This document shows, piece after piece, positions 5,272 through 39,265 of a stretch of 45,504 nucleotides of DNA; within the stretch, counting starts at the first letter, position 1, and each line of letters begins with the position of its first letter. Source of the stretch: Bacteroidales bacterium (GTDB taxonomy: Bacteria; Bacteroidota; Bacteroidia; Bacteroidales; Azobacteroidaceae); assembly GCA_031553415.1 (NCBI GenBank), contig JAVBLO010000087.1, positions 1 through 45,504 on the forward strand. Reading direction: 5' to 3'. The notes beneath the pieces are model-generated. The model saw only the letters and a list, made by a program, of their open reading frames with translations. It did no database searches and had not been told where the DNA came from. The position numbers and the translations under genes were made by a program.

Positions 5272-5282
5272 GTCTTTTATTG

Positions 5283-8378: not shown

Positions 8379-8400
8379 ATCGGATTCTTGTATGGATTCG

Positions 8401-9519
8401 TTAATGTATTTTCAAGATTTTCGCCCCGACAGGATAGTCATCGAACCACATATTGAGGACATATTCGCCCGGAATAAATGGGGACATGGGGATTGACAGG
8501 TGATGGACGCCCGCAGCCAGGGCTCCGTAACTCCGTTGCCACAAAATCTTTCCCATCCGGTCACCCAACTGCATCCTGACCTGCCCGGTTCCAGGCATGT
8601 AAATCTCCGCTTCAAGGTTCGTGACCACGGGATTGGGATAGAAATTATATGTCAGGCCAGCCCAGGGACCTTCCGCACCGCTTACCCCCAAGGAAGGGTC
8701 TTCCCGGACAGACAGGTTTTCGACGTCTTCCACCGGGTAAACATGTTTCTTTGGTGGATAAAAGAAGGAGACTTCCTCAGGAAGAACAGTCTCATCATAT
8801 TGTGTCGTGGTGTTGCGTACGGTCTCAAAAATGGGGTAGCGGTATCCTTTTGCATACCAGCGGTATGTTTCGGTTTCATGTATCGGTAAGAGGGATAAGG
8901 CCCTGTCGATACTGTCGGAAGAAACAATGCTGTCAACCGTATCCCGACCGGCAAATGTGATGGGTCGTGACGTATCGGCCGTTTTCACGACAGTTCGCAC
9001 CCGTATCACGTGATGCAAGGTGTCCTTACCGGGAAGGATAAGCATCCCGAGTGCATCGGCATGGAAGGATAAAGTTCCCATTGAAGTGGTTTTTAACCGG
9101 TCGCAATATTTCCCCTTACCGGAAAAATAGCCATGTCCATAATCGCCATAACGGACAGGAAATTTCATTAACAACGCAGGTTGCCGGTATCTGAGCAATG
9201 TGGAGGCATTCTCAAATCCCCAGAATAACAGGGAATCTCCCGACAGGCAATAGTAATAGGAAGTTTCCCTTTCGGTTCCCACAACCAAAGAATCGTTTAA
9301 TGCATGGTAAGTGAGTTTGTACTCTTCTTCGGTTACCTTCAGCCGGCTGAAGTCCCAAAGTACATTCTCTCCCGAACGGCCGGGATCTTTGTACTCTACC
9401 TGTTGCCTGGTGATTTCATCACCTGCCCGGTACATGTTGTGCTTGTTTTGCAAGCTGTGTTGGGCAAACAAAGGAAATAACCCGGCAATGGAAAGGAATA
9501 ACGTGAGTTTTGTTTTCAT
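8401..9519 (-). CDS. secreted protein with T9SS C-terminal sorting domain, first gene of the Rhs operon-like array
   Basis: 372 aa. Signal peptide MKTKLTLFLSIAGLFPLFAQ. The C-terminal ~80 aa, ...FYPNPVVTNLEAEIYMPGTGQVRMQLGDRMGKILWQ...PGEYVLNMWFDDYPVGAKILKIH, fit the Por/T9SS CTD pattern (YPNP ... GxYxL ... KIxK). The N-terminal domain is unrecognised. Confidence 0.7.
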   Translation of the reverse strand: MKTKLTLFLSIAGLFPLFAQHSLQNKHNMYRAGDEITRQQVEYKDPGRSGENVLWDFSRLKVTEEEYKLTYHALNDSLVVGTERETSYYYCLSGDSLLFWGFENASTLLRYRQPALLMKFPVRYGDYGHGYFSGKGKYCDRLKTTSMGTLSFHADALGMLILPGKDTLHHVIRVRTVVKTADTSRPITFAGRDTVDSIVSSDSIDRALSLLPIHETETYRWYAKGYRYPIFETVRNTTTQYDETVLPEEVSFFYPPKKHVYPVEDVENLSVREDPSLGVSGAEGPWAGLTYNFYPNPVVTNLEAEIYMPGTGQVRMQLGDRMGKILWQRSYGALAAGVHHLSIPMSPFIPGEYVLNMWFDDYPVGAKILKIH

Positions 9520-10015: not shown

Positions 10016-10519
10016 GTGGCTTTAAGCCACTGTATTACAAGTATGGCATCCCACTTAAGAAAAAGGTCAGATGCTAATACTTATGCCAAACAATACAGGA
10101 CATCAAGATCTGATTGTAAAAACTGCAAATTGCGACAAGAATGCATAGGAAAACGTGTCCATAAGTCTCTGGAAGACACTTTGGATAAACCTTATTATGA
10201 GAGAATGTACAAAAGGGTTAATACAAAGACGGGAGCAAAGATGATGAGAGTAAGGGCAGCTACAGTGGAACCGGTATTAGGAACATTACTCCATTTTGTT
10301 GGAATGAAGAAAGTTTATACCAAAGGGATTGATTTGGCGAACAAACATGTTCTGTTGGCTTCTACTGCTTATAATGTCAAGAAACTATTAAAGTTCAAGG
10401 GAATAGACAGTGGGATTAAATCAGTACTGAATGCTTGTATTAAAGGTAAAGATGGAATTCTTATCGTTATCACAGACTTAGCTGAACGGGGGAACTACAA
10501 TCTCACTGTTTATAATGAA
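10016..10519 (+). mobile_element. IS1182/IS5-like transposase, 5'-truncated C-terminal remnant
   Basis: The ORF (193 aa as listed) has the CKNCKLRQEC Cys motif and ...TVEPVLGTLLHFVGMKKVYTKGIDLANKHVLLASTAYNVKKLLKF, typical of the C-terminus of IS1182-family DDE transposases. The N-terminal ~250 aa, including the catalytic region, are absent. It is immediately right of repeat copy B. Confidence 0.6.
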
Positions 10520-10592
10520 GTCGGGGTACAAAGGTCTTGTAGTCGGAGTACAAAACATATGTACTCCGACTACAAGACCTTTGTACCCCGAC
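10520..10592. repeat. perfect palindrome: 32-bp arms (GTCGGGGTACAAAGGTCTTGTAGTCGGAGTAC) with a ~9-nt loop, at the 3' end of the transposase remnant
   Basis: Direct inspection: 10520-10551 is the exact reverse complement of 10561-10592. The listed ORF reads through it, which is probably artefactual. Confidence 0.85.
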
Positions 10593-10745
10593 TATAGAAA
10601 TTAAATGCTCTTAGCATCTGCTTCAAAAAGTAACTGATTCGGTTTTGTAAGACATAGAAATTATCAATTAACTTTGTAACCTGAATTTACTTTCCTGTGT
10701 CATATCTGTACAAACTAATTATTAACATTTTTATAAATACAGATT

Positions 10746-11135
10746 ATGGAACAGTTTTTTGATTCATTGGTACCTATTTTGGGAATTCTTTGTGCAGTAG
10801 CTCTACCGATTGCAGGTGGAATTTTTTTGGCTACAAAAAATATCGTAAATAAACACAACGAAAAAATGAAAATGATTGAGGCCGGACTTATTCCTCAGGA
10901 ATTGCCAAAAGAAGTAAGTAAAACTGCTACTTTGCGCAATGGGATGCTGATGTTGGGATTAGGTATTGGTGCAATCCTTGGTTTTTTCCTGGGAGAATGG
11001 CTCGGATATGAAAAGCTTACATTTGCTTTAATGGTTTGCTTATCTGCTTTGACACTGGGAGGATTGGCGTTGTGCCTTTGTTATGTATTTCTTTATCGTT
11101 CGAATAAAGACGAAAATACAGACATTGACGAATAA
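10746..11135 (+). CDS. small membrane protein (unknown function) upstream of the ECF sigma factor
   Basis: 129 aa with two or three hydrophobic helices. Its stop is 15 bp upstream of the sigma factor gene. Confidence 0.5.
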   Translation: MEQFFDSLVPILGILCAVALPIAGGIFLATKNIVNKHNEKMKMIEAGLIPQELPKEVSKTATLRNGMLMLGLGIGAILGFFLGEWLGYEKLTFALMVCLSALTLGGLALCLCYVFLYRSNKDENTDIDE

Positions 11136-11150
11136 TCCTTTTCAAATGAA

Positions 11151-11714
11151 ATGGAACAACAAATTATAGCATCTGTTCTCAACGGTAATACGAATGCGTT
11201 TGCAAAGCTTATAGAAAAGTATGCCGATATGGTTTTTTCCATTGCTTACCGTATATTACGTAATACGGAAGATGCGGAAGAAGTCGCTCAGGATGCATTT
11301 TTAAAAGCGTTCAATGCATTGAAATATTTCAGGAATGATTCTAAATTTTCGACCTGGCTTTATCAAATTGTGTATAATACTGCAATTAACAGGGCCCGTA
11401 CACAATTCAAAGAAACATCTTATGAAAATTATAACCATATAAATGAATCGGATTTTGAAGTATATTCATCGGAATTGGTTAATCTGGAGTCTCAGGACAG
11501 AAGAATTATTATTGAAAAAATGTTATCACAAATGTCTCCTGACGAAAGCCTTTCATTAACGCTTTATTATCTGGAAGAATGTTCGATAGAAGAGATTGCC
11601 AGTATTACCGGATGGCGTGAGTCAAATGTAAAAGTAAAACTTTTCCGTTCCCGGAAAAAATTTTACGAATTATTGAAAGATTATATGAAAACAGAAATCG
11701 ACATTTTGCTATGA
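11151..11714 (+). CDS. RNA polymerase ECF-type sigma-70 factor
   Basis: 187 aa. Region 2 (FAKLIEKYADMVFSIAYRILRNTEDAEEVAQDAFLKAF, STWLYQIVYNTAINRAR) and region 4 (LTLYYLEECSIEEIASITGWRESNVKVKLFRSRKK) are typical of ECF sigma factors. Confidence 0.88.
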   Translation: MEQQIIASVLNGNTNAFAKLIEKYADMVFSIAYRILRNTEDAEEVAQDAFLKAFNALKYFRNDSKFSTWLYQIVYNTAINRARTQFKETSYENYNHINESDFEVYSSELVNLESQDRRIIIEKMLSQMSPDESLSLTLYYLEECSIEEIASITGWRESNVKVKLFRSRKKFYELLKDYMKTEIDILL

Positions 11715-12079
11715 ATATAAAAGAGATAGATGAAGAAAAATTATTAAAAGGATTTTTGAAGGAAACTTGTCTTAAAGCCCCGGAAAATCTTTCTAAAAAT
11801 GTGATACAAATGATTGCGTTACAAGAAAAAGCTAAAGCGGGAGCCAAGCTACGGAGAGGACGACTGAAAAAAGAGGCTTTGCGGGGAGCCTGTTTCTTTT
11901 TATGTGTTTTTATTGTTGGTTTCCTTTTTCTGTTCTTTACTAAGGATGCATCATTCCGGATATCTCCTTCTCATGAACATGAGTCGTTATTCCTGATTCT
12001 ATTTGTTGTATCCGGAATTGCAGCCTCTTATTTTTTCCTGAAAGAACTTCTGAACCGTTTATTGCTAAGGAAACTATAA
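11711..12079 (+). CDS. putative anti-sigma factor (single-pass membrane protein)
   Basis: Start overlaps the sigma stop (ATGA). 122 aa with a cytoplasmic N-terminal part followed by TM segments, the classic ECF sigma / anti-sigma arrangement. Confidence 0.5.
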   Translation: MNIKEIDEEKLLKGFLKETCLKAPENLSKNVIQMIALQEKAKAGAKLRRGRLKKEALRGACFFLCVFIVGFLFLFFTKDASFRISPSHEHESLFLILFVVSGIAASYFFLKELLNRLLLRKL

Positions 12080-14041: not shown

Positions 14042-15106
14042 CTATTTGAGTTTCAAATCATTAAAAATATCTCTTGCTGCTGCAAAGTTATCATAAAGAT
14101 CCATTAAAGCATCGCCTGATGTAAGCGAAGATTTACCTAAAGTAAGGAAACCTTCGGGCATCGCAACGGAAAAGAAAAAGCGATCAGCATTGAATGAAAG
14201 CATGATATCGCGGTTGTATTTCTTTTTTAATTCTGTCATCCGGAGCATCATCGCCGGGGTAAGAATGTAGCGGGCAGTAATTTCATCGCTGGAATAAACG
14301 GCAAAATACCGTTCAAACTCTATATCTTCGAGTTTGACTAATTTATTACCATTCACATTTTTCAAACCCTGGATATTTTTGGCAAGATAATCAAGTTTGC
14401 TTTCCAAATGGTCGGGTAAAATAACCACAGTACCATTGATTTTCTTTTCCAATTGGGCATCTGCAAACATTCCACGGAAATCAGTTGCAATATTTTCCAC
14501 ACGTTTGGCAAATACTCCCTTGAAAAGAATTACTGCTATCTGAAACATGCCTGCTGTAGATGTTTGAGCCAGCCAGTTGCTTTTGGTTCCGCTTATGGAG
14601 ACGTCGCGGAAAGTCATTTTCCGGTTATTGTTTTCAAAAATAACTGTTCCGAAAGAATATCCTGAAGCGTATTCACGTTTCAATCCTCCGAAAAAGTTAC
14701 TTTGCATCATCAGTGACGTGGAGAAAGGAGCAGTAGTAAGATTACATTTGGCTTCGGGAAACATGGCCTGCATGATTCGCCGGATAGAAGTTTGCTCCGC
14801 ATCGGTGTATTTTTTATAAAAGTAACCCAATCCATATCCACCAAGGGTTATCAATATAAACAATGGGGCGATGATAATAAGCATTTTATACCTTTCCCAA
14901 AAAGAGGGATTGGGGTCTAAAGTATAAAAAAACGAAGTATCCCGGCTTGAATATATATAAACCTGCATTGCAATTAATCCAACAAAATAGAGTATTGCTC
15001 CGCCGTAGCAAAAAATCCGGGAAATCCTGATTTTTTTCTGGTTCTGTTCGGCTTTTTTCAATGTGGAATAAAGCTCTTGTTGCAGTTGCTCTATTTTTTC
15101 AGTCAT
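14042..15106 (-). CDS. LemA-associated membrane protein (DUF3137-like; two N-terminal TM helices)
   Basis: 354 aa. Starts 2 bp after the lemA stop. N-terminal coiled-coil plus two TM helices. The DUF3137 family assignment is from memory of typical LemA neighbours, not from a search. Confidence 0.45.
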   Translation of the reverse strand: MTEKIEQLQQELYSTLKKAEQNQKKIRISRIFCYGGAILYFVGLIAMQVYIYSSRDTSFFYTLDPNPSFWERYKMLIIIAPLFILITLGGYGLGYFYKKYTDAEQTSIRRIMQAMFPEAKCNLTTAPFSTSLMMQSNFFGGLKREYASGYSFGTVIFENNNRKMTFRDVSISGTKSNWLAQTSTAGMFQIAVILFKGVFAKRVENIATDFRGMFADAQLEKKINGTVVILPDHLESKLDYLAKNIQGLKNVNGNKLVKLEDIEFERYFAVYSSDEITARYILTPAMMLRMTELKKKYNRDIMLSFNADRFFFSVAMPEGFLTLGKSSLTSGDALMDLYDNFAAARDIFNDLKLK

Positions 15107-15108
15107 AG

Positions 15109-15702
15109 TTATCTATTGAACAGCGACTTGACATCAACATTAGCTTTTTCGGCTTCAGGAATGGTAATTAACTCATAAGGCTGATAATGCTTTGCGGAAG
15201 CAACAATAGAAGACGGAAACATTTGTACATAATTGTTAAAGTCCACTGCAGCAGCATTGAAAGTCCGCCGTGCTGCTTGCAACTGGTATTCCATATCTTC
15301 AATGGATTCTTCGAGACGGAGGAATTGGTCGTTGGCTTTCAGGTCAGGATAGTTTTCAACCGCTAATTTCACATTGGCAAGTGTCCGGGAAAGTTCAGAA
15401 CCTAATTGAATTTGTTCATGTTCATTTTTTGTTTGTAACATCTGGGAGCGCAATTCTGTAATTTTAACAAGTGTGGAGTTTTCATGTCCCATGTAGGTCT
15501 GCACTGCCGCCACCAAATTGGGAATCATGTCGTTCCGTTGTTTCAACATCACACAAATGCTGCTTTCAGTCTGTTTTACACGGTTGTTTTTAGCAATAAA
15601 TTTGTTGTAGGTAACGATAAACCAAAGTACGATAATAACGATTACCGCTGCGATAATAACTGTGCCTGTCATAAATAATATGTGTGTTATTTTGTTTGGC
15701 AC
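15109..15702 (-). CDS. lemA: LemA family protein
   Basis: 197 aa. N-terminal TM helix followed by the LemA-type sequence ...YNKFIAKNNRVKQTESSICVMLKQRNDMIPNLVAAVQTYMGHE... Confidence 0.8.
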   Translation of the reverse strand: MPNKITHILFMTGTVIIAAVIVIIVLWFIVTYNKFIAKNNRVKQTESSICVMLKQRNDMIPNLVAAVQTYMGHENSTLVKITELRSQMLQTKNEHEQIQLGSELSRTLANVKLAVENYPDLKANDQFLRLEESIEDMEYQLQAARRTFNAAAVDFNNYVQMFPSSIVASAKHYQPYELITIPEAEKANVDVKSLFNR

Positions 15703-19837: not shown

Positions 19838-22800
19838 TTATTTCTTCAATGCTTTCATAATTCCTTCCAAACCTTCGTTGAATTGTGCTAATTGTGCGAC
19901 AATTTGTCCAACCTGGTTATTCTTATCAATACCAGCTAACTTGTTGTTTTTAAGGAATATTTCTTTGATTGTTTCCCAGCGTTTCCGGTCGGAATCGGTA
20001 AATAATCCGGCAATTTCCTTTATTTTCAGCAAGTTGGCTTCATTTTCGGAAGTCAGGGTTTGTGCTTCACTTTCGTAGTGGGTCATGATCAACTCATTGA
20101 TCTCGGTTATGTTCATTAATGGAACAATGAGGCTAACCATTTTATTCATATCGCGGTATGAGCCTTGCAATTTAAACGCTGGTTCGGTGCGATACGCTTC
20201 CTGCATGGCAGCGCTGGTTATGTATGTCTGGTTTACTTTCAATACGAAATTGCGAACCAATAACGCATTTTTAACTACAGCAATAAAATCATCTACATCC
20301 TGCTGGATATGGTTTCCTTCCAGGTCGGGAAAGTTTCCGCTGTTGGTTTCAATAAAGTCTACCAGATTGTAAAAATCATTGAAACTTTTGGAGGCAATTT
20401 TTTGTAAATACGGATTTTCTACAATTGCATTTTCCAATAAACTGAGTTTGAAAAGATTTTCCGAGCTGCCGATTACATCGCCCAGGTTATAAATATCAGC
20501 ACGGTTGGCCAACATGTCAGGAATCTGAAATTTTTCCCCGCTTTCGGTATATGGATTTCCTGCCATGATTACACAGAAACGTTTTCCCCGTAAATCGTAA
20601 GTTTTGCTTTCTCCTTCGAAAATGCCGTCCATTTTACGTTGTCCATCAGCTAAGGAAATAAATTTTTGCAGAAATTCAGCGCTGCAATGTTGTATATCGT
20701 CCAGATACAACATAACGTTATCGGCCATCTCGAATGCGAGGTTGATTTTCTTCAATTCTTCACGCGCACCTGAAGTTTTTGCTTCAGCAGGGTCGATAGA
20801 AGTAATGGAATGCCCAATAGTTGGTCCGTTGATTTTAACGAAATTCAATCCCATGGTTTTGGACAGGTATTCCATTAAAGTTGTTTTCCCATATCCCGGG
20901 GGAGAAACCAGCAACAACATTCCCATGCGGGCGGTACGTTTGTTTTCGCCTGCGGTTCCGAGTTGTTTGGAGAGATTGGCTCCAATCAACGGAAAATATA
21001 TTTCATTGATTAATTTGTTGCGGACAAAAGAAGTCAGCACACGCGGTTTTAATTCGTTCAACTTAAGCGTTTTCTTGTATTTTTCAACCAGGTTTTCTTT
21101 TACTTCGCTGAACTCGTTGAATTCAGGAACACTGACTTCTGAGAAATGTGATAACCGCTTGATAAACGAATGATAATCCAAAGTATAAACACCATTAACG
21201 ATAACTGCATGGTTTCCTTTCAGGCTTTTAATTTCGGTTTTATCCGGAGCTTTAAGAAGTTCATAAGTTTGTTCTCCGAATAGTAACAAACAGGTCGCTT
21301 CTTCTGCGTACTTCTTTTCTTCCGAATAGTTTTTGGACGCATCTAAGAATGACTGCATCCAGTTGGAAGCGAGATAGAACCGCTCTACCCAATCAAAAGA
21401 TTCATCTTGAATATCTTTTTCAAAATCATTTAAGAATCCGGTTTTCGTAGCATAAGCCAAAAACGCCAACCGGAGTTTTTCTGCCTGACCGCTTTTGGTA
21501 AAAGTTGGAGATACTGCAAACTCCCGGAATAAATAATCTGCAATTTGTTGCGAAGTAACATTTGAAAAAACCAATGTAGTATTCCACTGTTCGAACAGTG
21601 TTTGAATCCGTTCAATAACATAACGGAAATTTTCTGAGCTGGGGAATACTTTCAACACAGTGCTGGCAGCAATAATCAGTTTGTTGAGTTTTGCTTTTTC
21701 ATCTTCTTCCAAACTATTCCAGAAAAGTTGTGCAACAACACGGAGATGTGGATGGAAAGACAGCATATCCAAGTGCTGATACAACAAATCTAGTACTTCA
21801 TAAATGCGTAAAGCATCATAATCGTGCACTCCTTTCAGGTAAGATTCGGAGTAATTTTGTTCTGCTTTTCGGGTGATATATTCTTTCGGATTGAATTTTT
21901 TACTCGTTTGTTTGGCTAAAAATGTTTGGTAAGCAAGGTATTCGGCACGATAAACAACCTTGTTTTCCGAAAGAATTTCCTGTTCCCAGATGCACCTGTA
22001 ATGGTTGATTTTTTCATTATCCAGGAGTTGGTAAAAACTTGTTCCCGTCAGGTGGTAATATAATCGGTCGTTTTTCCTGACAACGGTCAAATCTAACGGC
22101 TGTTTGCTAACAGTGAATTTGTAAGTACCCAGACTGATGATTTGTTCTCCATCTACAAACAATTCCGTGCGGTCTTTCAATATGCGTAAAGCATCTTCCA
22201 ATGAAGTTTTAAGGCAGTTTTCGAGATTTTCAGCTTTCGAAACATCTCCCAATAATTTGAGTTCTTCAACTAATTTCCGGACTTTATCAATCATCAGGTC
22301 AGTTGAAAAGAAAGCTTGTATTTCTTCTTTGGTCTTGAATGATTGGGCTTTGTTTTCGATATTCTTCAACACCCGGAGCCCGATTTGTTCGAGCGAAGAA
22401 GTCCGGTGGTTGATTTGTTCCTGTAATTGCGCCTTTTTACCATCAAATGCTTTGGTAATTTCGTCACGTTTGTCTGCAATTTTTTCGACAAATTCGTTGA
22501 AATCGGCGAATTTACTTTCCAATTCTTCGACCAGAACACTTATTTTGGTAAAATATTCATCACATTTCCCAGGAGAAGTTGCCAGTTCCAGGTAATTAAC
22601 AATGCTTTGTTCCAACAAGGTAAGTTGTGCATGGAATTCAGCCACGGATTCCCCGGTTTTCAAAGAGTCGGTTTTCCTCTTTAACCGGGCGCGCACTTCA
22701 TTCAACGATGCGAATATCAGTGAAATTTTTTCGACAATGCGGGTAGCCTGGGTTTTATCTTCAATTTTCAGGCTGTTCAAGATATCTATTAAAAGCTCAA

Positions 22801-24670
22801 GTTCGGATGAAATCAGTTTGCAGTTTTCATCTATTTTATTGGCATCAATAACTTTGGTAACTGTTTCAATCTGTTCTTTTTCGATTGCAACTTTTTCTTC
22901 ATAAGGAACCAAAGCCTCATCTTTCAACAGAAACTCAACTGTTTTATCCGAAAGTTTTTCATTGGTTTCGGCCAGTTGTTTTTTAAGTTCCTCAATTTTC
23001 TCCGAATCAATATACTTTATATTGCCTTTCTCAATGACTTCGCCTTGTAACTTCCGGGTTTCGGCCAACAATTTTACCAGACTATCGAGATTATCATATC
23101 TATTATTCTTGTAACTGAATAATAAACTTTCAATCTTTTCGATTGTTTCATCAAGCTGTTGGGATGCATATTTTTTTTGTGTCTGTACTTTGGCAAACTC
23201 ATCGATAGCAGTTTCTGCAATGCTTTTTATGTGTTTCAGTGGTTCGGAGAGGCAATATGTTTCCTTATCTGCAATCCAGAAAAAAGCATCAATAGTATCG
23301 TTCGCTTTTTTGGCTATATCAACATAAAGTCCGTCGTAAGAATCTTCCTTATTGATTAATTGTATAATTTCGTGGCATTCAGCCATTGCCTTTACAATAT
23401 CTTTGTTTCCGATTTTATAGAGTTTATTATCCTTTTTTCCCGTATTTTCGGTAAACTGGCGTTGGTAAGGCGTTTGCCAGATTTGCACCTGGTGATACTT
23501 GGTTGCGTCTTGTTCGGTTTTAAAATAAATCAACCGTCCATCGGCATATAATGTAAAACCGCCACATATAATTGGTGTTTCCACTTGTTGTTTGATGATG
23601 TTGTATGACATCAACACGTATGTATGTGTATCGCCTTGATAGAAAAGGTAAAGGAAATCTTCTCCGTTTCCGGATAAAATCCGGCGCACGAATTCCATAT
23701 TATGTAAGTCACTTTCGAATATTTTATATTCTCCTGTTTGCAGGTAATAACCGTTGGGGAAAATGATTCCCTGATTATCAGGCAACAAAATTCCGGCATT
23801 CAACAACATGTGAATATTGACTACTTCCTTGGTGCGTGTATTGAAAATATATGAACGGAAATCTTCTTGGTAAGGCTTGATTTTAACTGCTAACAAATTG
23901 CCTAAATCGGCATAATAATATTCTGCATCATCTAATTGCTGGTCTTTATTCTCAACTGCTTCGGCATAAATTCCCTTTCCTGTCCTGGTATTGTCTTCAA
24001 TTTTGAATGTAATATCTCCGCCAACAGCCTCGATAAAAACTTTATTCATGATTGAAACATGCGGGTGAAGTCCGAGGCGGCGGTCTTCCAATGTGGTTTT
24101 ATTCCATTGGAACTCATGTTGGGATGGTTTGACTACTTCATGGATGCTCCGGTCGTCGATGTAAACCAGTTTGTTGTCTTTCATCAACCACTTGAAAGCT
24201 TTGGCGTCGGCAATGGTTTTTCCTGTCTGGAAAATCATATACAAGTAATTATCGGTTCTCCTGAAACGGGAGAAAATGGCATTCCGGTAATATTTGTAAA
24301 GATTGTTATAATCGTTTACAAAATCCGGGTTATTGATAAGATCTAATGGTTGAGGATTGAAATGGTTATCTTCAAATTTATAAATACTGAAAACATCGCT
24401 GAGCTGGATATCCGACCGCAGGCCAAAATGGACATTGTATGCAAAGATGCACAAATCGCCAATAACCATAATCCCCCTTGCCACACAATTGTTTTCGGTA
24501 GCAATGCGCTGGTTGGCTATCAGGGAAAAATCAACCGAACTGAAAACTTCTTTGCGCGATTCGTTCAGTTGGTTAAGGCGTTTATTAAGCTCGTCTTTTT
24601 GCGCTTGAAGGCGTTTTTTTATGATTTCGTAGGTGCCGGAATCGAGGGTTTCTATATTGGGTTGTTGCAT
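19838..24670 (-). CDS. giant (1610 aa) coiled-coil protein with C-terminal AAA+ (MoxR/dynein-type AAA_5) ATPase module; function unknown
   Basis: Walker A LLVSPPGYGKTTL and Walker B VMLYLDDIQH. VIMAGNPYTESGEKFQIPDMLANRAD matches the AAA_5 sensor region. About 700 aa of heptad-rich coiled-coil lie in the middle. The N-terminal ~450-aa domain is unrecognised. Confidence 0.8.
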   Translation of the reverse strand: MQQPNIETLDSGTYEIIKKRLQAQKDELNKRLNQLNESRKEVFSSVDFSLIANQRIATENNCVARGIMVIGDLCIFAYNVHFGLRSDIQLSDVFSIYKFEDNHFNPQPLDLINNPDFVNDYNNLYKYYRNAIFSRFRRTDNYLYMIFQTGKTIADAKAFKWLMKDNKLVYIDDRSIHEVVKPSQHEFQWNKTTLEDRRLGLHPHVSIMNKVFIEAVGGDITFKIEDNTRTGKGIYAEAVENKDQQLDDAEYYYADLGNLLAVKIKPYQEDFRSYIFNTRTKEVVNIHMLLNAGILLPDNQGIIFPNGYYLQTGEYKIFESDLHNMEFVRRILSGNGEDFLYLFYQGDTHTYVLMSYNIIKQQVETPIICGGFTLYADGRLIYFKTEQDATKYHQVQIWQTPYQRQFTENTGKKDNKLYKIGNKDIVKAMAECHEIIQLINKEDSYDGLYVDIAKKANDTIDAFFWIADKETYCLSEPLKHIKSIAETAIDEFAKVQTQKKYASQQLDETIEKIESLLFSYKNNRYDNLDSLVKLLAETRKLQGEVIEKGNIKYIDSEKIEELKKQLAETNEKLSDKTVEFLLKDEALVPYEEKVAIEKEQIETVTKVIDANKIDENCKLISSELELLIDILNSLKIEDKTQATRIVEKISLIFASLNEVRARLKRKTDSLKTGESVAEFHAQLTLLEQSIVNYLELATSPGKCDEYFTKISVLVEELESKFADFNEFVEKIADKRDEITKAFDGKKAQLQEQINHRTSSLEQIGLRVLKNIENKAQSFKTKEEIQAFFSTDLMIDKVRKLVEELKLLGDVSKAENLENCLKTSLEDALRILKDRTELFVDGEQIISLGTYKFTVSKQPLDLTVVRKNDRLYYHLTGTSFYQLLDNEKINHYRCIWEQEILSENKVVYRAEYLAYQTFLAKQTSKKFNPKEYITRKAEQNYSESYLKGVHDYDALRIYEVLDLLYQHLDMLSFHPHLRVVAQLFWNSLEEDEKAKLNKLIIAASTVLKVFPSSENFRYVIERIQTLFEQWNTTLVFSNVTSQQIADYLFREFAVSPTFTKSGQAEKLRLAFLAYATKTGFLNDFEKDIQDESFDWVERFYLASNWMQSFLDASKNYSEEKKYAEEATCLLLFGEQTYELLKAPDKTEIKSLKGNHAVIVNGVYTLDYHSFIKRLSHFSEVSVPEFNEFSEVKENLVEKYKKTLKLNELKPRVLTSFVRNKLINEIYFPLIGANLSKQLGTAGENKRTARMGMLLLVSPPGYGKTTLMEYLSKTMGLNFVKINGPTIGHSITSIDPAEAKTSGAREELKKINLAFEMADNVMLYLDDIQHCSAEFLQKFISLADGQRKMDGIFEGESKTYDLRGKRFCVIMAGNPYTESGEKFQIPDMLANRADIYNLGDVIGSSENLFKLSLLENAIVENPYLQKIASKSFNDFYNLVDFIETNSGNFPDLEGNHIQQDVDDFIAVVKNALLVRNFVLKVNQTYITSAAMQEAYRTEPAFKLQGSYRDMNKMVSLIVPLMNITEINELIMTHYESEAQTLTSENEANLLKIKEIAGLFTDSDRKRWETIKEIFLKNNKLAGIDKNNQVGQIVAQLAQFNEGLEGIMKALKK

Positions 24671-24777
24671 AGGTATTTATATAAAAAGAATTATCGGAAG
24701 TTATTAGAATTCAACCGGGAGTTACCGGAATAAATTCTCCTGATAAATTCCGATAACTTCTGATTAAATTCCAAAAA

Positions 24778-26859
24778 TCAACTCAAATGTTTATTTGATA
24801 CTCCCAACGATTTTGCCATTCCCATTAAGTTATTCAACAGACCCTTGTCTTCATCCCCTGCCTGTTGATGCATTTTGATAATCAAACTGGAAATGCTCAG
24901 GTTTTTAATATCTTCCGATGAAATACCTAACCGGTCGGCCATATCACGGATTTTATCGAATAAACCTCCGTTTCCATTGGACAACAATGCTTTTTTGATT
25001 TCTTGCATATTCTCACTTTCATTAACCAAACGGTCGAATCCTTTGGCATTGGAAATTTGTTTGACGATGTTTTCGAAGAACATGGTTTCGCCTCCGACAA
25101 TGTCGATATTGGCCGATTTCAATGCTTCCGACAACACATGTGCCTGTGCTTCGGCAATGTCTTTCTGGATATTGATTTGCGCCAGTTCGATATCTTTTTC
25201 TTTCTGAAGCTGGAGTTTGAATTCTTCGTGTTGTTTTCCAACACCGTCGAATTTCTTCATGGCATCTGCTTTCTTTTCAATACCGGATGCATCGGCTAAG
25301 GCTTTTTCCTTGATTCCGGTAGCTTCGGCTAAGGCTTTTTCGCGGGTTACATCAGCTTCTGCAAAACCTTCTTTCTTTTTCGCTTCTGCTTTCGCTTCAA
25401 TTCCTGTGGCTTCTGCTTTGGCTTTCTTTTCAATAACAGTTGCTTCTACAGTTCCCTGACGCTCCATAGCATTGGCTTTGGCATGCATTACTTCAGCTTC
25501 GGAAAGTCCGATAGTTGCTTCTTCACGGGCAGTTGCTTCAGCTAAAATTTTACGCGCTTCCGCTTGTTTGGCTGATGCTTCTTTTTTCGCTTCTGCATCG
25601 ATTTGCAATTGTTTGGCTTTTTCCTGGGCTGCCTGTGTGTCAGCTTCTGCAGCACGCACAGTTTGAATCAATCTTTCTTCTGCTGTTTGGCTGGCACTGG
25701 TGATACCTACTTTTTTCTGGCGTTCCACTTCGCGGAATGCTTCAATATCCTTGATGCTTTGTTGTTCTTCCACAACACCTTTTTCCAATTGTACCCTTTC
25801 ACGGATAACATCCTGGATATTTTTCTTTTCCACTTCGATGACTTTATCCCTTTCGATTTGGGCTAAAGTAACAATGCGTTCACGTTCGGTTTGTTCCAAA
25901 GCGCGGTCTTTTTCCACCCTTTCGGTTTCGACAGCAGCCGTACGGATTTTATTTTTTTCCGCAATAATGATCTGGCGTAGTTTATTTTCTTCCTGAACTT
26001 GCAGGCTTTCTTCCGTTGAGATTCTTACAGTTTCTGCTTTAAGACGTTCTTCTTCACGGACTTTTTTGATTTCAGCTTCTTCGCGAGCTTTGGCATTGTC
26101 AATTTCACGTTTTTGTTTTTCTTCTTTTTCTGCTAACTGGCGTTCCATTTCGAGAATGGCTTCGCGCGCTTCCACATTTTGCTTTTTGATAGCTTTTTCT
26201 TCTTCCCTGCGGATATAGTTCGCATTGATATTTTGAGTCGCTGTCAGTTCTGTAATTTTTTTAATACCCTCAGAATCGAGGATATTATCCGGACTAAGGA
26301 ATTGAAGTTCTGTCTGCTCCAGATAGTCAATGGCGCAGTCGTCCAGGATATAACCATTCAAATCAGTACCTATAATGTTAAGGATTTCATCACGGAATTC
26401 CCTACGGGCTTCATATAGTTCGATAAATTGGAATTTCTTCCCTACGGTTTTTAATGCTTCGGAAAACTTGGATTCAAAAATAGTTCTGAGGGTTACAATG
26501 TCGCTTGCCCTTTCGCATCCTATGGTCTGAGCTACATTGATAACATCATTGACATTTTTATTTACCCGCACAAAAAAGGCAACTTTGATATCTGCACGGA
26601 TATTGTCTTTACAAATCAATCCGTCGTGTTGCATTCTTTCAATATCTAATTTTTTAACTGAAATATCCATGATTTCCATTTTGTGGAAAATAGGGATGAC
26701 GTACATACCTTTATTAAATGCGACAGCAGTGCCGCCTACACCTGTACGTACGATAGCTTTCCCTTGTGGAATTTTTTTGTAGAATGTAGCCAGCATGGCT
26801 AAGAACACCAGCAGGACAAACAGAATAGCGCCTGCTGTAATAGCAATAATTTCTCCCAT
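24778..26859 (-). CDS. flotillin-like SPFH/band-7 protein (YqiK/FloT family)
   Basis: 693 aa. N-terminal TM helix plus SPFH region (AIVRTGVGGTAVAFNKGMYVIPIFHKMEIMDIS...) and a long EA-rich coiled-coil tail (KAEAEAKKKEGFAEADVTREKALAEATGIKEKALADASGIEKKADA). Confidence 0.82.
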   Translation of the reverse strand: MGEIIAITAGAILFVLLVFLAMLATFYKKIPQGKAIVRTGVGGTAVAFNKGMYVIPIFHKMEIMDISVKKLDIERMQHDGLICKDNIRADIKVAFFVRVNKNVNDVINVAQTIGCERASDIVTLRTIFESKFSEALKTVGKKFQFIELYEARREFRDEILNIIGTDLNGYILDDCAIDYLEQTELQFLSPDNILDSEGIKKITELTATQNINANYIRREEEKAIKKQNVEAREAILEMERQLAEKEEKQKREIDNAKAREEAEIKKVREEERLKAETVRISTEESLQVQEENKLRQIIIAEKNKIRTAAVETERVEKDRALEQTERERIVTLAQIERDKVIEVEKKNIQDVIRERVQLEKGVVEEQQSIKDIEAFREVERQKKVGITSASQTAEERLIQTVRAAEADTQAAQEKAKQLQIDAEAKKEASAKQAEARKILAEATAREEATIGLSEAEVMHAKANAMERQGTVEATVIEKKAKAEATGIEAKAEAKKKEGFAEADVTREKALAEATGIKEKALADASGIEKKADAMKKFDGVGKQHEEFKLQLQKEKDIELAQINIQKDIAEAQAHVLSEALKSANIDIVGGETMFFENIVKQISNAKGFDRLVNESENMQEIKKALLSNGNGGLFDKIRDMADRLGISSEDIKNLSISSLIIKMHQQAGDEDKGLLNNLMGMAKSLGVSNKHLS

Positions 26860-26864
26860 AATAA

Positions 26865-27566
26865 TTAAATAGTAAATTCTTTTGTTACGTAATATGTCTT
26901 TTTATCCTCACTTTCGTCAACGACCATTACTTGGTCGCCGTATCTTATTTCTTCTCCGGTCATACTAATGACATTCAGTTTCATCGGATTCTTTTCAATG
27001 AAAAATTCGGCAAAACCAATCTTCTTGTCTTTGATGGTAGACAACATCTTTCCTGAGCGTCCGAGAAAATCAATTCCCTCCTCGCCCTGATATCCTATTT
27101 CCTTAAAAAATCTTGCCATAGGTGTGGTCGCAAATTTAGTTAAAATTATTCCGATACCAAGCAATGGGATCAGAATCAATATAGATTTCCAGCCCCAGGT
27201 ATCTACAGCTATCATTTGAGTGGTTATCAGGGTTCCTATCCATGTGAAAAATTTCAACGTAGAAAATATCAGCATGAAAGGGACTTTCCCGACATTCAGG
27301 AATTCCAGGAATTTTACGAATGGTCCGTGCACTTTTTCTGTGGGGACATCATGGTCGGGATCCGGATCATGGTTTACATCGTGAACGTGTCCGTCTAACC
27401 CTGCATCAACATTTGCATCCACATCGAAATCAGCACCCAGGTCAATATCTCCGAATCCGATGCCGCCAATCAAAACGAATAGCCAATACAGAACAATAAC
27501 TGCCATTATCCCAGTCATAATGGCATTGGGAAGGGGATGAATTAAGTGGTGCCAGAGTTCTGCCAT
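26865..27566 (-). CDS. NfeD/YqiJ-like membrane protein (flotillin partner)
   Basis: 233 aa, 5 bp upstream of the flotillin gene. Acidic DxD-rich region, several TM helices and a C-terminal soluble beta-rich domain. This resembles the yqiJ-yqiK pairing. Confidence 0.55.
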   Translation of the reverse strand: MAELWHHLIHPLPNAIMTGIMAVIVLYWLFVLIGGIGFGDIDLGADFDVDANVDAGLDGHVHDVNHDPDPDHDVPTEKVHGPFVKFLEFLNVGKVPFMLIFSTLKFFTWIGTLITTQMIAVDTWGWKSILILIPLLGIGIILTKFATTPMARFFKEIGYQGEEGIDFLGRSGKMLSTIKDKKIGFAEFFIEKNPMKLNVISMTGEEIRYGDQVMVVDESEDKKTYYVTKEFTI

Positions 27567-27616
27567 AGTAGTGTATGTAGTTTAATTGACAAAGATAAAA
27601 ATGATATTTATTATAT

Positions 27617-27937
27617 TCATTTATAAATATTCCTCAACCACGGAATTTTTGAAAAAAACCGATACAGTTTTGTTTCAAACTTTGTTGGTTGCAAATCTTC
27701 TTCCTGAAGGAAACCTCCATCTTTCAAAATCCGGACGGCCCGCTCCACATCATCTTCCATAACCTGCAGTTTCACTCCTCCAATCGCTGTAGATATAAAA
27801 GGGTGAACCTGCGAAGTTAATTCATCCTGAACAAAACAATATATTCCTTCCGATTCCAATAAGCTTTGCGCAATACCTATTTCATGCGAAAAAACAAATG
27901 TTTTGACGGTTACAAGTTTGTTTCCTTTTTCTGACAT
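27617..27937 (-). CDS. DUF2007-like small protein
   Basis: 106 aa. LVTVKTFVFSHEIGIAQSLLESEGIYCFVQDE matches the DUF2007 pattern. Confidence 0.5.
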   Translation of the reverse strand: MSEKGNKLVTVKTFVFSHEIGIAQSLLESEGIYCFVQDELTSQVHPFISTAIGGVKLQVMEDDVERAVRILKDGGFLQEEDLQPTKFETKLYRFFSKIPWLRNIYK

Positions 27938-28041
27938 TGTTTTAACTTCGTATATTATTCTGTAATTGTTTGCAATTTGCTATGCACAATTAAATTGCAA
28001 TTAATTGCCATATATTGCGCTAACGGCTAATTGCTTTAATT

Positions 28042-28743
28042 TTAATCTATTCCAAGTTTACGTTTAATTTCATCCAGTTCCTGATTTACTTTTCCTGCGT
28101 CGTCCCCGATGGCTTTGTTGATTTCATCATCAATAGAAGCGGTCTTTTTTGCCAAATCGCCATAAGCCTGTGCTAAAGCTTCTTCTTCTTCAACTTTCTC
28201 TTTCATACGCTCCAACATGCTGATAGTGCTGTTACTATCGATTTGCGCCATCTGTTTATTGACTTGTTTAGTTGCCTTACTAACCCGGATTCTGGATTTT
28301 AAAGTCTTCAGTTCATTTTCCCATTTGTTTATGTTGAACTTCATAACTTCCACATTCTTCTGGATTTCATCGGCAGCAGTTTCGTGAGTGGTTTGTTGTT
28401 CACCAAGTTCTTTGGCCTCCACGAGCAAACGCTCTTTGATAGCCAATGCTTCGCGGGCTAATTTTTCGGCCTGTGCCATATCTAATTCGCCTTTCTGAGC
28501 TTTGGTTAATAACAATACTGCTTTCCCGCTATAATCTTCAGCACTTGCTATTTTTTTATTTTTGTCATTTTTAGTGCGGATAGCCATTGCCTTTACACGC
28601 GCCAGCGATTCAATGGCACTATCTAAATCTTCACGCATTTCGCGGATTCCCTGTTCCGTCATCCGGATAGGATCTTCCATGTTATCTACGATTGAATGAA
28701 TTTCGGCCTGGCCGATCCTCATGAGTCTTTTGAAAATATTCAT
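28042..28743 (-). CDS. pspA: PspA/IM30 family protein (ESCRT-III superfamily)
   Basis: 233 aa. MNIFKRLMRIGQAEIHSIVDNMEDPIRMTEQGIREMREDL... aligns with E. coli PspA [27 protein letters not shown]... It is predicted fully alpha-helical coiled-coil. Confidence 0.85.
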   Translation of the reverse strand: MNIFKRLMRIGQAEIHSIVDNMEDPIRMTEQGIREMREDLDSAIESLARVKAMAIRTKNDKNKKIASAEDYSGKAVLLLTKAQKGELDMAQAEKLAREALAIKERLLVEAKELGEQQTTHETAADEIQKNVEVMKFNINKWENELKTLKSRIRVSKATKQVNKQMAQIDSNSTISMLERMKEKVEEEEALAQAYGDLAKKTASIDDEINKAIGDDAGKVNQELDEIKRKLGID

Positions 28744-28745
28744 GA

Positions 28746-29138
28746 TTATTGTTTTTTCGAAAATTCGATAATTTGTTCGTAATATTCACTTAGCAACAGA
28801 CCTAAAGAGTTAAATGCCCCTTCGAGTTCGTTCATGTCCAGGTTTTCCACTTGCATGGTATAACGGAAAATCACTTTGGTGCCTGTCTCATCCAGCACAA
28901 AAGCGCCGTGTATCATATCCCTGTTTTTCTTCAAAAGTGATTTCAATATTTCTTTGTCATCGCTTTTCAAGGTGAAGATAAACTGTTCCAATACCACAAT
29001 GGGAGGAGCCACACCAATAATCAGGTTCTTAATTCCGTCTGTTTCGTTTTCGATACAGAGGATCCCTTCTTTCTCGTCCTGATAAGAAATTGTATAACCC
29101 AAACGGGAAACAAATGATTCAATTTTTTTGAAATACAT
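28746..29138 (-). CDS. YbjN-like small cytoplasmic protein (putative chaperone/sensor-like), co-transcribed with pspA
   Basis: 130 aa. Its stop lies 2 bp before the pspA start. Fold and family assignment are tentative. Confidence 0.4.
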   Translation of the reverse strand: MYFKKIESFVSRLGYTISYQDEKEGILCIENETDGIKNLIIGVAPPIVVLEQFIFTLKSDDKEILKSLLKKNRDMIHGAFVLDETGTKVIFRYTMQVENLDMNELEGAFNSLGLLLSEYYEQIIEFSKKQ

Positions 29139-29206
29139 GGCCTTATTTAAAATAAAAGTCCTACATTTGCATATATTTTTAGCAAAAGTAATAAAATAAA
29201 TTTATT

Positions 29207-29902
29207 TTGCAAATAAAAATAGCACTTTTTATGAGTCAAATCGGGAAAAATATACAAAAAATAAGAAAAGTAAAGGGATTGAGCCAACAGGCTTTTGCTG
29301 AACTATTTCAGCTCACCAGAGGCAATATATCCTCATACGAGGAACTGCGGGCGGAACCCAAGCTTTCATCTACTGTTGAAATTGCTAATTATTTTAGCAT
29401 TCCGGTCGGCGATTTTATTTCAAAAGATTTATCTGTAAATGAATTACTCCATTACAATACAGGATTGGTTTTGGAAACCGAAGAGCTGAAACGCAATCAC
29501 AGGTTGATCCATATACCTTATATTTCTGTATACAATCTCCCTGAATTTATTGCTAAATATAATGATGAAAATTTTATCCAAAGCCTGCCTCATATTATTA
29601 TTCCCAACAATTCTGAATTTCAATTAATTGCTATTGAAGTGAGCAATTCTGAAAATTTTCCTCTGGGCTTCGACTACAAAAACGGAGACATTTTGTTTTA
29701 TGAAAAGGTTGTAAAAGAAAATATACACCGTTTAAAAGACAAACTTGGAATAAAAATAGATGCTTCGGGCATCAAAGCCGGTATTTTTGAAATACAAGAA
29801 CAGGAAATATTCCTTGCGTTGAATGAATTGGTAAAATATCCTTTTGACATTCACTCCGATTCGGAATATTGGATATTAAGATCTGCTTATATACAATATT
29901 AA
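29207..29902 (+). CDS. XRE-family HTH transcriptional regulator with C-terminal LexA/S24-like domain, divergent from the psp array
   Basis: Cro/C1-type HTH IGKNIQKIRKVKGLSQQAFAELFQLTRGNISSYE. The likely true start is MSQIG at about 29231. C-terminal beta-rich domain. Confidence 0.65.
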   Translation: MQIKIALFMSQIGKNIQKIRKVKGLSQQAFAELFQLTRGNISSYEELRAEPKLSSTVEIANYFSIPVGDFISKDLSVNELLHYNTGLVLETEELKRNHRLIHIPYISVYNLPEFIAKYNDENFIQSLPHIIIPNNSEFQLIAIEVSNSENFPLGFDYKNGDILFYEKVVKENIHRLKDKLGIKIDASGIKAGIFEIQEQEIFLALNELVKYPFDIHSDSEYWILRSAYIQY

Positions 29903-38012: not shown

Positions 38013-38032
38013 AATTGTTAATTATTTTGCTT

Positions 38033-39265
38033 ATGAATAAGTATATCTTATCCCTAATCTGCATCTCTATAGCTTTTGCATCCTCTGCAAAAATATATAC
38101 TGTTAAAGATGTCCCTAATGTACAATTGGAGGATGCAACCCGTTTTGTATCCAATCCTGATGAAATTATTTCAAAAAACGCAGAAAATATAATCAACAGC
38201 GAAATTGCAGTTGTCAGGGATTCTGCATCTGCCGAAATTGCAGTTGTTTTACTTGAATCAATCGGAGACAGGGACATAGATGATTTTGCAACCGACCTTT
38301 TCATGGATTGGAAAATAGGGAAAAAGGATAATGATAACGGTTTACTATTCCTTTTGGTTAAAGACCAGCGGCAGATGGTTTTCCGTACAGGATACGGGTT
38401 GGAAGGCGTACTCCCAGATGCTATTTTAGGACGTGTTATCAGGAATGATATTTCTCCATATCTTAAACAGGGAGATTTCGATGGGGGAATCACAAACGGA
38501 ATCGAAAAAGTTTGTGAATATTTGCTCAATCCGGAAGCCATACAGGAAATTTATTCTTCCGAAAATTCAAAACCCGGGATTCATTTTGAAGAAAGTAGTG
38601 TTTTTGGGTACCTGTTTGTTGGCTTTGTTATTTGTTTCCTTTTTGTAATATGGACTATTTCTGTGTTGGGTACAAACAAAAATAACTATGAAAAATACAT
38701 GTCGTTCAAGAAAGGAAAAGGACTTACTATCTTTTTTACAGTCTTCTTTCCAATTTCTATGTTGCTCTTTTGCATCATCTATTTCTTCTTGAAGGGAAGG
38801 TTACGCAACAAACCCATTAAATGTCCGAAATGTAAAACCAAAATGCAGAAGCTGAGTCAAACGGAAGAAGTTCCTTATTTGAACAGACCTCAGTTGACAG
38901 AAGAAAAAATCGGTTCGATAGATTATGATGTTTGGAAATGTGATAATTGTAATTATCTGGAAATACTTCCCTATAAGAAAAGGTCAAAATATACTCCTTG
39001 TCCGTTTTGCAATGCAGTGACATATTATCTTGCCAGCGATATTGTTATTTCAAGGGCGACAACCCTCTCTTCCGGTGCGGGAGAACAAACTTTTAGTTGC
39101 AAAAATTGCGGGAAAAGCTACAAAAGAAGATATAAAATACCCAGAATTGTTGTCACCTCAAGCAGTGACCATGGTGGAAGTAGTTGGGGAAGTGGTTCCG
39201 GGAACAGCGGCGGCTCATGGGGTGGCGGTAGCACTGGTGGTGGCGGAGCGAGGGGCGGCTGGTGA
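38033..39265 (+). CDS. TPM-domain (YgcG-like) membrane protein with inserted double zinc-ribbon and Gly-rich C-terminal tail
   Basis: Signal peptide MNKYILSLICISIAFA. TPM phosphatase-like domain. Two TM helices. Four CxxC pairs (CPKC, CDNC, CPFC, CKNC). Tail GGSSWGSGSGNSGGSWGGGSTGGGGARGGW. Confidence 0.75.
   Translation: MNKYILSLICISIAFASSAKIYTVKDVPNVQLEDATRFVSNPDEIISKNAENIINSEIAVVRDSASAEIAVVLLESIGDRDIDDFATDLFMDWKIGKKDNDNGLLFLLVKDQRQMVFRTGYGLEGVLPDAILGRVIRNDISPYLKQGDFDGGITNGIEKVCEYLLNPEAIQEIYSSENSKPGIHFEESSVFGYLFVGFVICFLFVIWTISVLGTNKNNYEKYMSFKKGKGLTIFFTVFFPISMLLFCIIYFFLKGRLRNKPIKCPKCKTKMQKLSQTEEVPYLNRPQLTEEKIGSIDYDVWKCDNCNYLEILPYKKRSKYTPCPFCNAVTYYLASDIVISRATTLSSGAGEQTFSCKNCGKSYKRRYKIPRIVVTSSSDHGGSSWGSGSGNSGGSWGGGSTGGGGARGGW

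Follow-up and report, generated by a model that had tools for sequence, protein, structure and literature searches.

How bacteria assemble and disassemble PspA polymers and flotillin cages, and whether ATP is spent in the process, is the question raised by a gene array of a Bacteroidales bacterium assigned to the Azobacteroidaceae (GenBank assembly GCA_031553415.1, contig JAVBLO010000087.1, positions 1 to 45,504 of the forward strand). This whole stretch of 45,504 nucleotides (nt) is referred to here as the window. In the array, genes encoding PspA, an NfeD-related membrane protein, and a flotillin are followed by a gene encoding a giant AAA+ protein. An earlier note on this DNA interpreted the array as an uncharacterised membrane-remodelling system in which PspA has its own ATPase. 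Its statement that no dedicated ATPase partner is established for bacterial PspA is consistent with a 2025 review, according to which a Vps4-like ATPase appears to be absent in bacteria (PMC7619361). The comparison of related loci confirmed the array as a true module that is conserved, with an arrangement far beyond chance, and identified the ATPase as first of all a partner of flotillin. The module is a concrete and widespread candidate for ATP use in the turnover of both types of assemblies.

Gene content and conserved linkage

The open reading frame (ORF) listing of the window contains six successive minus-strand ORFs between positions 19838 and 29138, separated in the direction of transcription by 2, 104, 50, 5, and 107 nt, and the coordinates of the earlier note agree with it exactly. 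The first gene (28746-29138) encodes a CesT/Tir-like small chaperone of 130 amino acids (aa), the second (28042-28743) PspA/IM30 of the bacterial ESCRT-III superfamily (233 aa), and the third (27617-27937) a DUF2007 protein (106 aa; Pfam DUF2007, E 6.8e-9). They are followed by genes for a YqiJ/YuaF-type, NfeD-related membrane protein of the kind that partners flotillins (26865-27566; 233 aa), a YqiK-type flotillin of the SPFH family with an N-terminal membrane anchor (24778-26859; 693 aa), and a cytoplasmic AAA+ protein of 1610 aa (19838-24670), which belongs to the DUF3686 family (Pfam) and bears the database name 'DNA repair ATPase'. The identities proposed earlier hold for PspA, DUF2007, YqiJ/NfeD-like, flotillin, and AAA+ proteins; for the first protein, the label 'YbjN-like' (E 4e-6) is weaker than CesT/Tir-like, which is based on a full-profile match to Pfam CesT_Tir_1 (PF22550, E 7.6e-52).

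Conservation of this neighborhood was assessed in 80 genome loci obtained from a genome scan and one Myroides locus, in which ORFs were called and searched with iterated hidden Markov models built from the window proteins. Flotillin and YqiJ genes were counted in the 65 loci with at least 3.5 kb of upstream DNA, PspA and CesT genes in the 64 loci with at least 6.5 kb. Nine additional distant loci (the nearest relative, Acidobacteriota, Sumerlaeota, four Gammaproteobacteria, Streptomyces, and Deinococcus) gave a combined sample of 74 loci with enough upstream DNA from at least 10 phyla. A co-directional flotillin gene lies immediately upstream of the ATPase gene in 62 of the 65 loci and in all nine distant ones (71/74), accompanied upstream by a co-directional YqiJ gene in 61/65 and 9/9 loci, respectively. 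PspA is encoded in the array in 32/64 loci and the CesT-like protein in 31/64, all of them Bacteroidota; the loci of Planctomycetota, Verrucomicrobiota, Kiritimatiellota, Desulfobacterota, and Firmicutes comprise the three-gene core (YqiJ-flotillin-ATPase) only. Spacing within the array is tight, with medians of 11 nt (CesT to PspA), 81 nt (PspA to YqiJ), 24 nt (YqiJ to flotillin), and 124 nt (flotillin to ATPase) over the loci compared. When all neighboring ORFs of 82 loci were clustered, the only recurrent neighbors were YqiJ, flotillin, PspA, CesT, and helix-turn-helix (HTH) proteins.

Since the YqiJ-flotillin pair is nearly universal and PspA occurs in half of the loci, the ATPase is first of all a flotillin partner and PspA a recurrent add-on. 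The conserved linkage anticipated by the earlier note was thus clearly found, but its picture of PspA with its own ATPase was centered on the wrong protein. PspA occurs beside the ATPase in one further setting: on the well-studied Pseudomonas fluorescens SBW25 megaplasmid pQBR103 (84.4-97.6 kb), a complete yjfI-yjfJ(PspA)-yjfK-yjfL-yjfM-yjfC polyamine operon resembling that of E. coli and a rhomboid protease gene are fused directly upstream of YqiJ-SPFH-ATPase. A second phylum thus also shows the link to PspA, there through another pair of PspA and chaperone, and the best-supported reading is that a PspA-chaperone dyad has joined the flotillin-ATPase core at least twice, in Bacteroidota together with a dedicated repressor.

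These counts also bear on the possibility that the giant ATPase is a dedicated Vps4-like motor for the disassembly of PspA (ESCRT-III) polymers, with flotillin and NfeD as accessories. The joint presence of PspA and the ATPase in one array in 32 Bacteroidota loci and on pQBR103 speaks for it, as does the suggestion of Snf7/Vps4-like ATP-dependent remodelling for PspA-AAA+ associations (Ravi et al., PMC11237479), and the regulation of bacterial PspA polymers is an open question. However, half of the loci do without PspA, and we regard a PspA-specific motor as unlikely.

The operon architecture has been described before, contrary to what the word 'uncharacterised' conveyed. A CesT/Tir-PspA operon encoding a YqiJ/YuaF-type protein, a band-7/flotillin protein, and an ATPase composed of a beta-propeller, a coiled coil, and an AAA+ domain was reported by Ravi et al. 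(mSystems 2024; bioRxiv 2020; PMC11237479), who proposed a chaperone-like or ATP-dependent role in membrane dynamics. Their supplement shows a Dokdonia donghaensis example (ANH61663.1) with the same gene order and '<-cHTH+Protease' at the position of the regulator. Shortened flotillin-YqiJ(-ATPase) operons that lack PspA are, as they also noted, more widespread, and our locus counts agree with this. The window matches this class in gene order, in the five protein types, in the divergent HTH+protease-like gene, and in the propeller, helical bundles, and AAA+ domain of the ATPase; it differs by one additional gene, DUF2007, inserted between PspA and YqiJ. The cluster is thus a further member of an operon class published purely as a prediction, with a lineage-specific DUF2007 insertion. 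The new elements are the linkage counts, the assignment of the ATPase to the MoxR/dynein clade, the operator-like motif described below, and the fusion with the yjf operon on pQBR103. In other studies, PspA has been found with band-7/FloT, NfeD, and HTH regulators in Acidobacteriota (Popp et al. 2022), and an SPFH protein links PspA to the membrane in B. subtilis (PMC8581546).

DUF2007 had been counted among the module components in the earlier note. It is a lineage-specific insertion with no in-array homolog among the 80 loci; elsewhere, it was found at the PspA-YqiJ junction only in the nearest relative (with an 82%-identical ATPase), together with an extra DUF6263 gene.

Proteins of the array

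The PspA protein matches Pfam PF04012 (PspA_IM30) over residues 2-228 with 149.7 bits against a cutoff of 33.9 (E 1.2e-43), and BLASTP aligns it end to end with both E. coli PspA (residues 1-233 vs. 1-220, E 4e-10) and the E. coli paralog YjfJ (E 4e-7). These comparisons assign it to PspA/IM30 and the bacterial ESCRT-III superfamily. In comparison with the E. coli psp locus, no gene for PspB, PspC, or the PspF sigma-54 activator of the canonical Psp system (PspF-PspABC) was found beside the window pspA among ORFs of at least 70 aa; its neighbors are instead the CesT-like, DUF2007, YqiJ, flotillin, AAA+, and XRE HTH genes. The E. coli yjfIJKLMC operon resembles the window in that a small CesT/Tir-superfamily protein is followed by a PspA-family protein, but the window chaperone has no detectable BLASTP similarity to YjfI, and the window lacks the polyamine genes.

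The 693-aa protein yielded no match to any Pfam model, Band_7 and Flot models included, and no PDB sequence match (phmmer), even at E = 10; the NCBIfam FloT model gave E 0.003. Its comparison with E. coli K-12 YqiK by BLASTP showed 31% identity over 464 aa (E 6e-49), spanning the membrane anchor, the SPFH region, and the coiled coil, and NCBI and JGI list its close homologs as 'flotillin family protein' or YqiK. On the strength of the direct comparison with YqiK, we treat it as a flotillin of the YqiK-type subfamily, which the Pfam models miss. The 233-aa YqiJ-like protein matches Pfam YqiJ_N with 30.6 bits against a cutoff of 23 (E 4.3e-7) and, weakly, E. coli YqiJ (BLASTP, E 5e-5 over 51 residues). 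No match to the Pfam NfeD domain was found in this protein; a C-terminal soluble NfeD beta-barrel (OB-like) domain has been described in the literature for YuaF and YqiJ. A hydropathy scan located one transmembrane segment in the flotillin (residues 4-22) and two hydrophobic segments in the YqiJ-like protein (8-33 and 129-147), and none in PspA, DUF2007, the regulator, or the giant ATPase. All soluble parts are therefore predicted to be cytoplasmic, with flotillin and YqiJ anchored in the membrane. The pairing of NfeD and flotillin genes in operons is established (Hinderhofer et al. 2009; PMC2636767). As in E. coli YqiJ-YqiK and B. subtilis YuaF-FloT, the YqiJ-type partner in the window is encoded directly upstream of a homologous flotillin; the E. 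coli yqiJK locus differs in having no ATPase, PspA, or regulator, and the window flotillin is 140 aa longer.

In the 1610-aa protein, Pfam recognizes DUF3686 (residues 27-464, E 4.6e-167), DUF7902, and a single AAA domain (AAA PF00004, E 2.7e-8; AAA_5, E 1.9e-7). A search with its non-AAA N-terminal 1190 residues retrieved 1233 representative 50% clusters at E<=1e-3, most of them colinear over the whole length; the family comprises 3665 proteins among the scored candidates of 90% clusters and is carried by at least 587 of the species genomes scanned. AlphaFold2 (AF2) models were built with 58 homologs of 38-84% identity. The model of residues 1-1195 has a mean predicted local distance difference test (pLDDT) score of 85 and a predicted template modeling (pTM) score of 0.48, which leaves the relative placement of the domains uncertain. 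It shows, in order, an N-terminal helix, a beta-propeller at residues ~49-400, which corresponds to DUF3686 (23471-24526 on the minus strand), long helices at residues ~416-837 (22160-23425, minus strand, DUF7902 included), a small beta unit, and a helical domain at residues ~908-1130. The propeller has pLDDT values mostly of 85-92, and Foldseek matches it to WD40, CyRPA, Vps18, and clathrin propellers with a probability of 0.9-1.0. The long helices form bundles that are spectrin-like in the model.

The model of residues 1151-1610 (pLDDT 81, pTM 0.72) comprises an AAA+ module at residues ~1215-1445 (20336-21028, minus strand) followed by a helical C-terminus. In agreement with the earlier note, its predicted fold belongs to the MoxR/dynein clade and not to the Vps4 type; searches by sequence alone suggested classical AAA and RuvB proteins, on account of the P-loop only. 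The N-terminal MIT domain and the classical-clade AAA domain that mark the Vps4 type were not found in the giant ATPase, nor did Pfam detect a protease domain. Walker A (GYGKT; SPPGYGKTT in the window, 20879-20905), sensor-1 N1372, and R1390 are invariant across the family, and Walker B (LYLDD, residues 1324-1325) is invariantly DD and not DE. An invariant motif, YRTEPPFxLQGSYRNMN (residues 1493-1508), was also noticed in a predicted loop of the AAA+ lid region. MoxR proteins such as CbbQ, NorQ, and RavA are typically of ~250-500 aa and work with VWA-domain partners. The window ATPase differs from them in its length of 1610 aa, its propeller and helical arm, its DD Walker B, and its lack of a conserved VWA neighbor, as ORF clustering in the 82 loci gave no recurrent VWA gene.

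Many homologs of the ATPase are named 'DNA repair ATPase', and some 'MoxR-like ATPase' or 'DNA polymerase III delta prime subunit'. If the first name were right, the adjacency of the gene to membrane genes would be incidental. The Pfam description of DUF3686 ('ATPase involved in DNA repair') and the NCBI name favor this reading, as do weak P-loop matches to RuvB; the latter, however, span only ~35-45 residues around Walker A. In addition, neither Pfam nor Foldseek revealed a nuclease or DNA-binding domain in the giant protein, a literature search found no paper mentioning DUF3686, and in 71/74 loci across many phyla the gene stays linked to those of flotillin and YqiJ. A role in DNA repair is thus highly improbable, and the name, which traces to the Pfam description, is probably wrong.

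A docking function was also considered for the flotillin C-terminal motif IDIVGGE..FF, which is conserved across phyla. Flotillins without the ATPase probably carry similar C-terminal strands, and the motif was not adopted as an ATPase-specific docking site.

Divergent regulator, control region, and transcription

A gene overlooked by the earlier note lies divergently upstream of the array and encodes an XRE-type HTH regulator (Pfam HTH_19/HTH_3) with an S24/CI-like C-terminal domain (29231-29902, plus strand). The ORF was called mechanically from a TTG at 29207 to 29902, and its likely start is the ATG at 29231. Residues 2-171 match the CI-like repressor families phrog_3 and phrog_4 of PHROG. 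In the alignment, the C-terminal domain follows the S24/LexA pattern with Glu at the position of the nucleophilic Ser and Arg at that of Lys, and because both catalytic residues are replaced, it is probably non-catalytic and not self-cleaving. A homolog of the divergent regulator adjoins the CesT-like gene in 30 of the 31 CesT-PspA loci; in one Chryseobacterium locus without the CesT-PspA dyad, it adjoins YqiJ instead.

The region between the regulator and the CesT-like gene (29139-29230) contains TTGC(A/T)AA elements at 29178-29185 and 29205-29214, with three copies within 29178-29214. The density of this element is 9.4 per kb in 32 intergenic regions between the HTH and CesT genes, compared with 0.25-0.78 in other gaps of the same operons and 0.63 in whole loci; the element is enriched approximately 15-30-fold, and only in the divergent control region. 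The sequence TTTGCAAA is present in 15/30 control regions vs. 0.6 expected. The copies are predominantly spaced by 12 bp, often in the form TTGCTAAT-N-ATTTGCAAAT, with sites near the start codon of the regulator, and in Empedobacter and Algoriella the element occurs as a perfect inverted repeat (ATTTGCTAAT-TAT-TTTAGCAAAT). We consider it a candidate operator of the XRE/S24-like regulator, part of which may overlap the Bacteroidota promoter consensus. Both the regulator and the element belong to the Bacteroidota version of the module.

The restriction of the element to one control region fits a single regulated unit. No terminator-like hairpin was found in any internal gap of the six-gene array. 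A scan for sigma-70 promoters returned 58 sites vs. 51 expected from shuffled sequence, which is no excess, with a consensus that is unsuitable for Bacteroidota. The genes from CesT through ATPase may be co-transcribed.

At the flotillin-ATPase junction, seven loci carry unrelated inserts (DMP19, AbiEii toxin, IS200-like transposase, DUF559/Vsr-like endonuclease, M54 peptidase, and DUF3592), which suggests that the junction is a permissive insertion site. The inserts are heterogeneous and differ by genome, which rules out a hidden seventh component between flotillin and the ATPase. In the window, two direct repeats that are almost the same (GGAATTTAATCAG and GGAATTTATCAGG) lie in the 107-nt spacer (24671-24777), which also has a short CCGG...CCGG hairpin.

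A further possibility is an anti-phage or abortive-infection system, in which the membrane scaffolds and the large NTPase would act as sensor and effector. The module has a patchy phyletic distribution and occurs on megaplasmids, its regulator is CI-like, and the inserts include defence-type or selfish genes (AbiEii, DUF559 endonuclease, IS200 transposase). Nevertheless, PADLOC returned no match for any of the six module proteins and only generic HTH matches, the inserted genes vary from one genome to another, and most loci are flanked by ordinary housekeeping genes. Phage defence is therefore an improbable explanation and, like DNA repair and a PspA-specific motor, less likely than a membrane-scaffold module with its own motor.

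Proposed membrane role and flanking genes

The reading that we favor, and regard as fairly likely, is that of a conserved membrane-scaffold module centered on flotillin and NfeD, with its own MoxR-type motor acting on the lattice. The core of the module consists of the YqiJ/NfeD-like membrane protein, the YqiK-type flotillin, and the cytoplasmic giant protein; in Bacteroidota, the window included, it is preceded by the CesT/Tir-like chaperone-PspA dyad, with the divergent XRE/S24-like repressor upstream. The repressor may silence the operon until it is released by a signal from the envelope or membrane. Flotillin and YqiJ would then oligomerize into a scaffold at the inner membrane, on its cytoplasmic side, and the small chaperone would keep PspA until its delivery to the scaffold site. 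The ATPase, probably a hexamer, would dock through its propeller and helical arm and spend ATP to assemble, remodel, or recycle the flotillin lattice, as well as the PspA lattice where present, at stressed membrane sites. In this scheme, the gene content, homology, linkage, AAA+ clade, catalytic motifs, and cis-element are results of the analysis, and we infer the co-transcription of the genes, the physical interaction of the proteins, what the ATPase acts on, and which signal induces the operon.

The proposal is based on analogy with two systems. HflK/C complexes with the AAA+ protease FtsH (PMC13220708), and in HflK/C-FtsH as in the prohibitin-m-AAA protease pair, an SPFH scaffold (in HflK/C, a cage) is coupled genetically and functionally with a membrane AAA+ ATPase. 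The likeness of the window to these pairs is one of analogy only: compared with FtsH, the window ATPase lacks both a protease domain and a transmembrane segment and belongs to another AAA+ clade, and the window flotillin is expected to face the cytoplasm. The second system is Vps4/CdvC-ESCRT-III, with which the window shares an ESCRT-III-superfamily protein (PspA) encoded beside an AAA+ ATPase, but here the ATPase has no MIT domain, is of a non-classical clade, and is not obligately linked to PspA.

A more far-reaching version, which we offer tentatively and consider doubtful, is that the giant MoxR-type protein fills the vacant role of an ATP-driven remodeller of bacterial membrane scaffolds: a hexamer docking by its propeller and spectrin-like arm on flotillin cages and, in Bacteroidota and some Proteobacteria, also on PspA/ESCRT-III polymers, which it would assemble or disassemble in membrane repair. 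If this were true, bacteria would possess a functional analog of Vps4 that evolved independently from another AAA+ clade.

Several points weigh against an ATP-driven scaffold remodeller. Literature searches found no experimental study of the ATPase or the cluster, and those for flotillin with MoxR, or for 'DNA repair ATPase' with flotillin, found nothing relevant. YqiJ-YqiK occurs without the ATPase in E. coli and in many other bacteria, which means that flotillin does not generally need it. The DD in Walker B implies that the protein could be a slow switch and not a processive remodeller, and MoxR ATPases normally pair with a VWA partner, none of which is conserved here. The flotillin-ATPase gap is, moreover, the loosest in the array, reaching 2.4 kb with unrelated inserts in some genomes, and the ATPase may therefore possibly have its own promoter. 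The strict linkage to flotillin and the repeated linkage to PspA make the question testable in Flavobacterium, Chryseobacterium, Sphingobacterium, and Pseudomonas fluorescens with pQBR103.

The module had also been thought to continue downstream of the ATPase into a secreted HExxH protein, a small secreted protein, a BASS-like transporter, and LemA. These genes exist in the window, where the first product is 732 aa long and carries HEIAH at residue 255, the second has 196 aa and a hydrophobic N-terminus, and the others are SBF, LemA, and DUF3137 proteins, but they are not conserved with the module, as none of the five has a homolog in any of the 80 related loci; the nearest relative has a sulfatase gene at this position. 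LemA (15109-15702) and its DUF3137 partner (14042-15106), as well as a separate TPM-domain protein (38015-39265), are not linked to the module elsewhere; TPM domains have been listed among PspA partners (Ravi et al., PMC11237479).

Elsewhere in the window, the minus-strand stretch 1969-9519 encodes a 1100-aa DUF6443/RHS-repeat protein and two proteins of 1031 and 372 aa without a Pfam match. Its GC content is 0.46-0.52, compared with ~0.38 elsewhere, and it is flanked by small ORFs at 426-1965 and by a DDE transposase fragment at 10016-10597. It resembles a polymorphic-toxin locus gained by horizontal transfer, and immunity genes may follow downstream. In the adjacent region 10746-12079, the gene for a DUF6249 protein is accompanied by one for an ECF-type sigma factor (11151-11714), which a 122-aa ORF (11711-12079) overlaps; the product of this ORF is a candidate anti-sigma factor.

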